DNA of 64,000 nt from Escherichia coli (GTDB taxonomy: Bacteria; Pseudomonadota; Gammaproteobacteria; Enterobacterales; Enterobacteriaceae), in NCBI RefSeq assembly GCF_003018255.1, contig NZ_CP027440.1; one strand, given 5' to 3'. The first letter of the stretch is position 1, and each line of letters begins with the position of its first letter. The notes under the pieces were generated by a model that ran no database searches, was not told the DNA's origin, and saw only the letters and a program-made list of their open reading frames with translations. Made by a program: the position numbers and the translations under genes. Of the stretch, positions 43,237-43,702 are shown piece after piece.

Positions 43237-43416
43237 ATGACTTTTATTCATCAGGTGATGCTGTACTTCTGTACGGCAGTCTGTGTGCTGTATCTCCTTT
43301 CGGGTGGATACCGGGCCATGCGTGACTTCTGGCGCAGACAGATTGACAAAAGGGCCGCTGAGAAAATCAGCGCCAGTCAGTCAGCCGGAAGCAAACCCGA
43401 AGAGCCGCTCATTTAG
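43237..43416 (+). CDS. 59 aa putative small membrane protein (below ORF-track cutoff)
   Basis: Translation MTFIHQVMLYFCTAVCVLYLLSGGYRAMRDFWRRQIDKRAAEKISASQSAGSKPEEPLI; weak RBS. Confidence 0.3.
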   Translation: MTFIHQVMLYFCTAVCVLYLLSGGYRAMRDFWRRQIDKRAAEKISASQSAGSKPEEPLI

Positions 43417-43456
43417 CGGCAACTTTCTTAATCACACCTTTCGACGAGAAAATCCC

Positions 43457-43702
43457 ATGTCAGAAATTACATCCCTGGTCACTGCTGAAGCAGTGAAGGA
43501 CGTCCTGCGCTCTGAAGAAGTCCTGAGCGCACTGAAACAGAAACTGCGCCATAAGCTGGAAGCGCGTCTTGATGCAGAAGTGGATGCCATTCTGGATGAA
43601 CTGCTGGGCGCACCGGCAGCTCCGGAGCCGGAAGGCATCGCGGGTGAGGGGAGTGCTTCAGATAGCGGTGACCCCACACCTGACAGCGACATGATGATGT
43701 AA
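43457..43702 (+). CDS. hypothetical acidic protein
   Basis: 82 aa from [13 protein letters not shown]; acidic C-terminus; upstream of holin. Confidence 0.4.

Follow-up and report, generated by a model that had tools for sequence, protein, structure and literature searches.

Two small genes upstream of the pinholin gene in a Shiga toxin-type Escherichia coli prophage encode DUF1378 and DUF826 proteins with a possible accessory role in lysis

What do two small genes located directly upstream of the holin gene contribute to a Shiga toxin (Stx)-type prophage? The genes in question occupy positions 43237 through 43702 of the window, by which we mean the whole stretch of 64,000 nucleotides of Escherichia coli contig NZ_CP027440.1 (assembly GCF_003018255.1) that was analyzed, and they reside in the late region of a lambdoid Stx-type prophage, between an esterase gene and a holin gene. 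As sequence features they are ordinary, because both encode members of already catalogued protein families, DUF1378 and DUF826. We favor the reading, with a probability of roughly one half, that DUF1378 would be a membrane-tethered accessory lysis factor and DUF826 its soluble acidic partner, with a mechanism that is inferred from sequence comparisons.

Open reading frames (ORFs) of this size occur frequently by chance, as evident by the 88 ORFs of at least 30 amino acids present in 7 kb of the window, and therefore the presence of an ORF alone is not proof of a gene. The plus-strand ORF at 43237..43416 begins with ATG and encodes a 59-amino-acid protein that matches Pfam family DUF1378 (PF07125) over its full length, with a score of 130.1 bits (E=3.2e-38, residues 1-59 on profile positions 1-59 of 59) relative to a gathering score of 25 bits. 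The second ORF, also on the plus strand (43457..43702), begins with an ATG at 43457 that is an in-frame start inside a 139-amino-acid ORF initiated by GTG (43283..43702). Its 81-amino-acid product is likewise a full-length match, in this instance to DUF826 (PF05696; 128.7 bits, E=9.1e-38, residues 1-75 on profile positions 1-75 of 75, gathering score 25 bits). The first protein also matches PHROG 494, and the second matches PHROG 311 and 8301.

An earlier note on this DNA had proposed two small unannotated genes at this location. The boundaries it gave coincide exactly with the start codon of the first gene and the stop codon of the second, and both genes are real, but they are not unannotated, as RefSeq proteins WP_000142780.1 (‘DUF1378 family protein’) and WP_001290206.1 (‘DUF826 domain-containing protein’) are each 100% identical to the products encoded in the window. 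Furthermore, E. coli OkiPb01697 carries the same 701 bp at 100% identity, with both genes annotated by RefSeq. Phage counterparts with the same gene order are located between nanS-p and S of Stx phages, including the L0106 region of 933W, H0119/H0120 of VT2-Sakai, and ECs_1210/ECs_1211 of the Sakai strain.

Evidence that both ORFs are genes comes from their patterns of variation. A total of 85 related loci gathered from IMG/VR, GenBank phages and E. coli genomes yielded 63 distinct DNA variants with 77-100% identity (these and the other related loci collected for comparison carry L numbers below). The DUF1378 reading frame is intact in all 63 variants, and the DUF826 frame in 61. Nucleotide diversity among these variants is concentrated at third codon positions, with values of 0.049, 0.018 and 0.123 at positions 1, 2 and 3 of DUF1378, and 0.021, 0.017 and 0.150 for residues 1-51 of DUF826. 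Relative to phage 933W, the ratio of nonsynonymous to synonymous substitution rates (dN/dS) is 0.17 for DUF1378 and 0.13 for DUF826, and it is close to 0 for the holin. Thus, both genes are protein-coding and are under purifying selection. In addition, the 15 nucleotides preceding the DUF826 start codon are nearly invariant (diversity 0.019), as would be expected for a translation-initiation region.

These same data bear on whether the region might instead carry one longer gene, or a non-coding RNA, rather than two genes. The record for phage 933W annotates a single ORF, L0106 (148 amino acids), that overlaps DUF1378 in another frame, and the corresponding 139-amino-acid form, which begins with the GTG at 43283 in the window, is modeled by PHROG 8301. 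When the overlap (43283-43413) is read in the frame of the long ORF, diversity at codon positions 1, 2 and 3 is 0.0125, 0.1189 and 0.0322. This places the peak at the second position of the long ORF, which is the third position of the DUF1378 frame, and therefore the two-gene model is right. A long single ORF of the L0106 type is ruled out by this codon-position pattern. The conservation of the DUF826 start codon and the nucleotides before it, together with the annotation of two genes both by RefSeq and in VT2-Sakai, also argues for two genes, and we consider the single-gene or non-coding alternative to be extremely improbable.

The protein encoded by the first gene has the features expected of a small membrane protein, which is what the earlier note had supposed. 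Residues 3-25 of DUF1378 are hydrophobic, with a Kyte-Doolittle peak of 1.93 over residues 3-21, and this N-terminal stretch includes the invariant motif LYFCxxVCxxYLxSGGY. It is followed by a basic stretch (RAMRDFWRRQIDKR), then by D..AAEK.S and a short disordered tail. AlphaFold2 models a single continuous helix spanning residues 2-50. The protein carries a net charge of +3, and six of its eight basic residues, as read from the sequence, fall within residues 26-39. The membrane helix is preceded by no basic residue, whereas six occur among the 14 residues that follow, and this asymmetry predicts an N-out/C-in topology. DUF1378 is therefore predicted to be a single-pass inner-membrane protein composed of an N-terminal transmembrane helix and a basic juxtamembrane helix in the cytoplasm. 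It matches none of the holin profiles in Pfam, even with E values up to 10, and a bona fide PF04971 holin is encoded directly downstream. For both proteins, Pfam searches extended to E<=10 gave chance-level matches only and no function.

The product of the second gene is strongly acidic (pI 4.19, net charge -11), as had been claimed, although its length is 81 rather than 82 amino acids; the higher number is reached only if the stop codon is counted. In DUF826, residues 1-51 are a conserved acidic domain that is predicted to be helical, residues 52-78 are a hypervariable acidic tail rich in Pro, Glu, Asp, Ser and Thr that is predicted to be disordered, and the protein ends with the tripeptide MMM. 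The AlphaFold2 model has helices at residues 10-17 and 20-49 (predicted local distance difference test scores of 85-91) followed by the disordered tail. Across the variants, the tail exists in at least five unrelated-looking versions of 27-60 residues, each rich in Pro, Glu, Asp, Ser and Thr, and all of them end in a hydrophobic tripeptide (MMM, MML, TML, IML or TLL). Within length classes, the ratio of nonsynonymous to synonymous polymorphism (pN/pS) is 0.33-0.58 for the tail versus 0.12-0.15 for the N-terminal domain, which indicates relaxed constraint and not positive selection. Positive selection on the tail is not supported, as the tail types differ by replacement and by insertions and deletions, with no excess of amino acid change.

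An informative pointer to a biological role for DUF1378 comes from the genomic locations of its distant relatives. A search of 1.84 billion representative proteins with a profile built from 12 DUF1378 sequences gave 38 matches, including full-length relatives with 27-50% identity, and a scan of viral contigs with a 6-sequence alignment added 60 loci, whose contexts were read from ORF maps. The core common to the family is M[TS]......LxF........LxxGG[YW]xx[IV]Rx[YW], and the cysteines are not conserved. Among 67 loci with distant relatives, 58 (representing about eight cassette types) place the gene inside a lysis cassette, eight place it with a tail-fibre-assembly gene on one side and a Dam-like methylase gene on the other, and one is uninformative. 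The cassettes span lambdoid, P2-type (LysB/LysC) and T7-like genomes. Pfam searches with 43 upstream neighbors identified Phage_lysozyme (12), GH19 (3), GH108 (1), five holin families (with PF04971 in 7), Rz and LysC. The ATG of the relative and the stop codon of the spanin gene overlap as ATGA in 19 of 21 representative loci. This overlap makes the DUF1378 relative the last gene of its cassette, and suggests that the distant relatives are probably translationally coupled to the spanin genes.

The placement of the DUF1378 family in lysis cassettes is reported here for the first time, and this sequence-based evidence supports a role in lysis without proving it. The earlier note had proposed that such a membrane protein, encoded near a holin, might be an antiholin, another regulator of lysis or an exclusion factor. 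The general connection to lysis gains support from the cassette locations, the spanin overlaps and the lysis-gene neighbors, but the narrower notion of a holin-specific antiholin does not, because the relatives occur with at least five holin families.

Several individual cassettes illustrate this organization. One deposited phage genome encodes, in order, a class II holin, a lysozyme, an unnamed gene and a ‘DUF1378 family protein’, and another encodes a class II holin, a lysozyme, a ‘lysis protein Rz’, an unnamed gene and the relative, which is listed as a ‘hypothetical protein’. In phage vB_SmeS_BUCT708, a distant relative of 50 amino acids is encoded downstream of the spanin genes. A T7-like contig (L094, 3264-4903) carries in a row the genes for a u-spanin-like lipoprotein that has a membrane helix at its C-terminus, an S21-type holin, a signal-anchor-release (SAR) lysozyme, a 57-amino-acid DUF1378 relative, and a 76-amino-acid acidic protein rich in Ala, Glu and Pro that is similar in character to DUF826. 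Two further loci (L129 and L131) encode a 56-amino-acid DUF826 homologue that consists of the N-terminal domain only (E of about 2e-10 in a small database) and that lies directly 5′ of the DUF1378 relative, which is the reverse of the order in the window. Most DUF1378 relatives have no DUF826 partner, and the long forms of DUF1378 (80-91 amino acids) carry their own Ala/Glu/Lys-rich helix and a Ser/Thr/Pro tail. The association of DUF826 with DUF1378 is recurrent, therefore, and not obligate.

Within E. coli the pair is common. The 466-bp gene pair is present in 1051 of 5426 complete genomes, or about one in five, with a median of two copies and a maximum of seven. It is not confined to Shiga toxin-producing E. 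coli, being found also in ATCC 25922 and in uropathogenic and avian pathogenic strains. It is present as well in 313 GenBank phage records, most of which are Stx-converting phages. Word-indexed protein searches recovered members of either family from Escherichia and Shigella only. The order of genes encoding the esterase, DUF1378, DUF826, the holin, an optional YdfR protein and the lysozyme is maintained in all 85 loci, and thus the pair is clearly conserved in related prophages, a property that the earlier note had named as a way to check its proposal. Across these loci, identity is 45-100% for the esterase, 93-100% for DUF1378 and mostly 94-100% for the holin, with the DUF1378 protein of one divergent locus (L087) at 56%.

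The start of the adjacent holin gene (positions 43780-43791 in the window; compared across L001-L090, L084, L161 and L162) exhibits a peculiarity that might relate to the pair. In almost every locus that carries the pair, the holin begins with MYQM or MNQM, and the two Met codons have no basic residue between them. S21-type holins encoded without the pair differ in this regard, as the K-12 genes essD and essQ encode MKSM, those of distant cassettes encode MKM or MYRM, and a copy from enteropathogenic E. coli (EPEC) lacks the first ATG. In S21 and lambda S, the long form owes part of its antiholin character to the basic residue. The MYQM/MNQM start fits a timing role for the pair, but is not proof of one. 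Moreover, the holins that accompany the pair all belong to one close lineage, and so this pattern represents a single evolutionary observation.

RNA signals in the vicinity of the pair offer some indication of how it might be expressed. No sigma-70 promoter was found on the plus strand by a consensus scan of positions 42900-44100, and manual inspection gave weak candidates only. An intrinsic terminator, comprising a GC-rich hairpin followed by U6, is located on the plus strand between DUF826 and the holin gene (43713..43746, z-score -3.5). A GC-rich hairpin of differing sequence is kept at this site in all but one of the variants with an extractable spacer, and a U-rich tract is present in most of them and is weak in one group. 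Downstream of the terminator, a plus-strand hairpin (CUUCCG...CGGGAG, 43756..43772) covers the Shine-Dalgarno sequence of the holin gene, and its fold is conserved in all variants. We take it to resemble the structure-directed-initiation element of dual-start S genes. A smaller GC-rich hairpin spans the DUF1378 stop codon on the plus strand (43404..43420), with a z-score of only -1.8.

A terminator had been assigned by the earlier note to the esterase gene, and this assignment appears to be mistaken. The hairpin that follows the esterase stop codon (43111-43139) has a 3′ U7 tract on the minus strand only; on the plus strand it is preceded by A7 and followed by GGUAAU. The gap between the esterase gene and DUF1378 contains a candidate minus-strand small RNA gene (43104..43185, Esr41/PasA/PasC-like) that was identified by Rfam, fold and position, and whose 5′ end is inferred. 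The Rfam match to Esr41 is weak (minus strand 43104-43177, 25.1 bits, E=0.037 in a 1.4-kb search, relative to a gathering score of 102). EPEC strain E2348/69 expresses two validated Hfq-dependent small RNAs, PasA and PasC (PMC8550237 Table S6; bioRxiv 10.64898/2026.05.13.724894), that have the same position and strand as the candidate, in the interval that separates the esterase gene from the plus-strand gene following it. Given the orientation of the U-tract and the matching location of PasA and PasC, the hairpin is tentatively viewed as more likely to be the terminator of a minus-strand small RNA. The small RNA assignment is itself tentative, because searches of seven related loci gave no Esr41 match at E<=0.1.

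A possible promoter for this small RNA can be read from the minus strand (43191..43219), with a -35 element TTGACA at 43219-43214 and a weak -10 element (TTTAAA/TTAAAA) 16-17 nucleotides downstream. The consensus promoter scan did not flag this candidate. Positions 43190-43204 are the most conserved intergenic stretch (diversity 0.018). The candidate small RNA lies more than 50 nucleotides 5′ of the DUF1378 ATG without overlapping the coding sequence, and could pair only with a long read-through transcript. Its sequence would be fully complementary to the part of the late transcript that separates the esterase gene from DUF1378.

The broader neighborhood has the order expected of a late region, with two tRNA genes and several STnc100 copies followed by the esterase gene, the two small ORFs, the holin gene, a DUF1327/YdfR-like ORF, the lysozyme gene, an ANT-domain gene and Rz. 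The upstream neighbor (41138-43102) encodes a 654-amino-acid SASA/DUF6645/DUF1737 esterase of the NanS-p type. The downstream neighbor (43780..43995, plus strand) encodes a 71-amino-acid S21-type class II holin that begins with MYQM, and its match to PF04971 (E=7e-33) bears out its earlier designation as a pinholin. The lysozyme has a hydrophobic, SAR-like N-terminus. Between the holin and endolysin genes, a 263-amino-acid DUF1327/YdfR-like ORF (43999-45240) matches known families over only its first ~170 residues, and an identical (100%) ORF is present in L005, L041, L050 and L077. A minus-strand ORF (44539-45171; 210 amino acids from ATG, 233 from GTG) that has no match in Pfam, PHROGs or PADLOC overlaps its 3′ end, an arrangement that looks like an insertion within the lysis cassette. 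An ANT (KilAC) antirepressor-domain gene is located between the endolysin and Rz genes (46109-46804), as it is in 933W.

Other RNA elements are found upstream and elsewhere in the prophage. Five copies of the STnc100 small RNA are present at 37959-38171 and 39931-40910, four of them in tandem directly 5′ of the esterase gene, and these copies are related to PasD small RNAs according to a recent preprint. The anti-small RNA AsxR lies beside STnc100 and 5′ of the esterase gene, at or above the gathering score, in 933W and L028 (L002 1985-2037 and L028 1669-1721, minus strand). A sub-threshold match is present in L087 (2469-2519, minus strand; 44 versus 63 bits), and no AsxR match occurs within the window. 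A match to the sok antitoxin RNA (118 bits, 31548-31722) points to a hok/sok-type module elsewhere in the prophage.

How might the pair act if it serves in lysis? Both genes, like those for the lysis proteins, would probably be expressed from the Q-antiterminated late transcript, as is suggested by the lack of a detectable plus-strand promoter and the late-operon location. DUF1378 would then be an accessory factor that works at the cytoplasmic side of the inner membrane, and may tune the timing or the sharpness of the envelope breach in a manner akin to Mu releasin or an antiholin. DUF826 would serve as a soluble partner or modulator, plausibly through an acidic surface that binds the basic helix of DUF1378. 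Direct contact is plausible because the juxtamembrane helix of DUF1378 and DUF826 are oppositely charged. The pair would be accessory, and not essential, for lysis.

A more ambitious form of this proposal, which we offer tentatively and regard as possible rather than probable, is that DUF1378 represents a previously unrecognized and widespread class of lysis-cassette protein. Its members would be membrane-tethered cytoplasmic factors, often co-translated with spanins in lambdoid, P2-type and T7-type phages, that control when, or how completely, the envelope is disrupted. In Stx-type prophages, the gene would have moved 5′ of a MYQM pinholin gene, whose long form is without the usual basic residue, and would have gained DUF826 as a cytoplasmic modulator, such that the pair helps to set the timing of lysis and of Shiga toxin release.

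Several observations weigh against a role in lysis, including the growth-phase behavior of ECs1211 and two features of the comparison with phage Mu that are described below. Eight of the 67 distant relatives adjoin tail-fibre-assembly and Dam-like genes and not lysis genes, and the 58 loci with a lysis context are not independent. DUF826 relatives also occur without DUF1378, as in another phage group (L166-L172, e.g. L166 3001-3156) where proteins of 55-62 amino acids, without the long acidic tail and with no DUF1378 nearby, are encoded just 5′ of a terminase-small-subunit-like gene. The pair is dispensable both for an S21-type holin and for the esterase, since each is found without it: prophages PP2 and PP5 of EPEC E2348/69 carry the esterase and a 92%-identical holin with only a small RNA between them, and both the esterase and the pair are missing beside K-12 essD and essQ. 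Each of the two small genes has a weak Shine-Dalgarno sequence. NCBIfam gave no function by homology for either protein, neither matched the anti-phage defense and exclusion models of PADLOC-DB at E<=1, profile searches of solved structures returned nothing better than E>0.1, and a Foldseek search of BFVD with the DUF826 model found nothing below E=2. The sole mention of both families found in the literature simply lists them between nanS-p and S (PMC10462455). Literature searches by locus tag found no relevant paper for L0106, Z1467 or ECs1208/1209, and one microarray table entry for ECs1210/1211. An apparent reference to ‘DUF1378’ in PMC7213743 is a typographical error for DUF1738.

That table entry is pertinent to the possibility that the genes are lysogenic-conversion cargo, or a ‘moron’, expressed in the lysogen to serve the host or the prophage, for example in superinfection exclusion or envelope modification, and not in lysis. 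ECs1211, the DUF826 gene of the Sp5 copy of the pair in Sakai (ECs_1210/ECs_1211; L163 6221-6713), changes by a log2 value of -3.29 (~10-fold down) between late-exponential and early-stationary phase in an uninduced culture, unlike stx2B (PMC2241611 microarray). Such regulation fits expression in lysogens and suggests that a transcript is made there, although the measurement derives from a single probe that cross-hybridizes with several near-identical copies and reports RNA only. The location of the pair within the Q-to-S cargo zone shared with stx and nanS-p, the presence of up to seven copies per genome, and the eight distant relatives in an accessory region beside a Dam-like methylase gene are also compatible with cargo, as is the terminator at 43713-43746, which isolates the holin gene from upstream transcription that is not antiterminated. 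On the other hand, no plus-strand promoter was found upstream of the pair, neither protein has a match in PADLOC, and most of the DUF1378 family resides within lysis cassettes, where the genes are apparently coupled translationally to those for spanins. We consider the cargo explanation doubtful, but deserving of serious weight.

If DUF1378 were instead a membrane toxin that damages the membrane as a holin or a type I toxin does, DUF826 might be its labile acidic neutralizer, with the hydrophobic C-terminus marking it for proteolysis, and the two would form a timer or an addiction module. The small size, single predicted transmembrane helix and basic tail of DUF1378 are suitable for a toxin, every version of the disordered DUF826 tail ends in a hydrophobic tripeptide, L129 and L131 have the antitoxin-then-toxin order, and a divergent small RNA candidate lies just upstream. 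Against this stand the many DUF1378 relatives that lack DUF826 (most of them, including six of the eight outside lysis cassettes), the DUF826 relatives that occur alone, and a small RNA that does not overlap the coding sequence and is present without the pair in EPEC, all of which make a toxin module improbable. The idea that the pair aids the NanS-p esterase, perhaps in folding, localization or release, draws on the fact that it adjoins the SASA/DUF6645 esterase gene in every E. coli locus with an available upstream flank. This we judge to be very unlikely, as the esterase is found without the pair, its identity ranges from 45 to 100% while that of DUF1378 is 93-100% (except for L087, with 56%), and no esterase is encoded at any of the distant DUF1378 or DUF826 loci.

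The pair matters only if the connection to lysis is real. Were this so, two unstudied proteins that perhaps influence the burst and the timing of toxin and phage release would be encoded directly 5′ of the pinholin gene in every Stx-type prophage, and the DUF1378 family would add a component to the holin-endolysin-spanin scheme in many phages.

Among known systems, type I toxins of the Hok/Sok kind resemble DUF1378 in being small single-helix membrane proteins with a small RNA gene nearby, but the candidate RNA in the window differs in that it is divergent, does not overlap the DUF1378 coding sequence, and also occurs without the pair. The timing of lysis is set by antiholins (among them the long products S21 71 and lambda S107, T4 RI with the cytoplasmic RIII, and P1 LydB), small proteins whose coding sequence lies within the holin gene or beside it. 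T4 has one membrane-associated and one small cytoplasmic antiholin, and the DUF1378/DUF826 pair resembles this combination of membrane and soluble proteins. No homology between antiholins and either DUF1378 or DUF826 was found.

The nearest analogue of DUF1378, by position and architecture only, is the releasin of phage Mu. Mu gp25 (DUF2730, PF10805) is a 99-amino-acid protein with one N-terminal transmembrane domain and an annotated N-out/C-in topology that is needed for release of the Mu SAR endolysin, and its family occurs with both SAR and soluble endolysins (PMC9239132). No sequence similarity between DUF1378 and gp25 was detected, an alignment of DUF1378 compared with a 12-member gp25 alignment gave an hhalign probability of 0.4%, and Pfam searches at E<=10 gave no DUF2730 match, and so DUF1378 should not be filed as a releasin. 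The proteins also differ in length (59 versus 99 amino acids), Mu has no holin whereas DUF1378 cassettes do, and DUF1378 in the window is encoded upstream of the holin and endolysin genes and not after the spanin genes as gp25 is. The likeness in architecture lies in an N-terminal transmembrane domain joined to a helical cytoplasmic part, which for DUF1378 is predicted only. The likeness in position is to the distant relatives of DUF1378, whose placement is matched by that of the gp25 gene, which closes the Mu lysis cassette and is situated between the spanin genes and the terminase genes.

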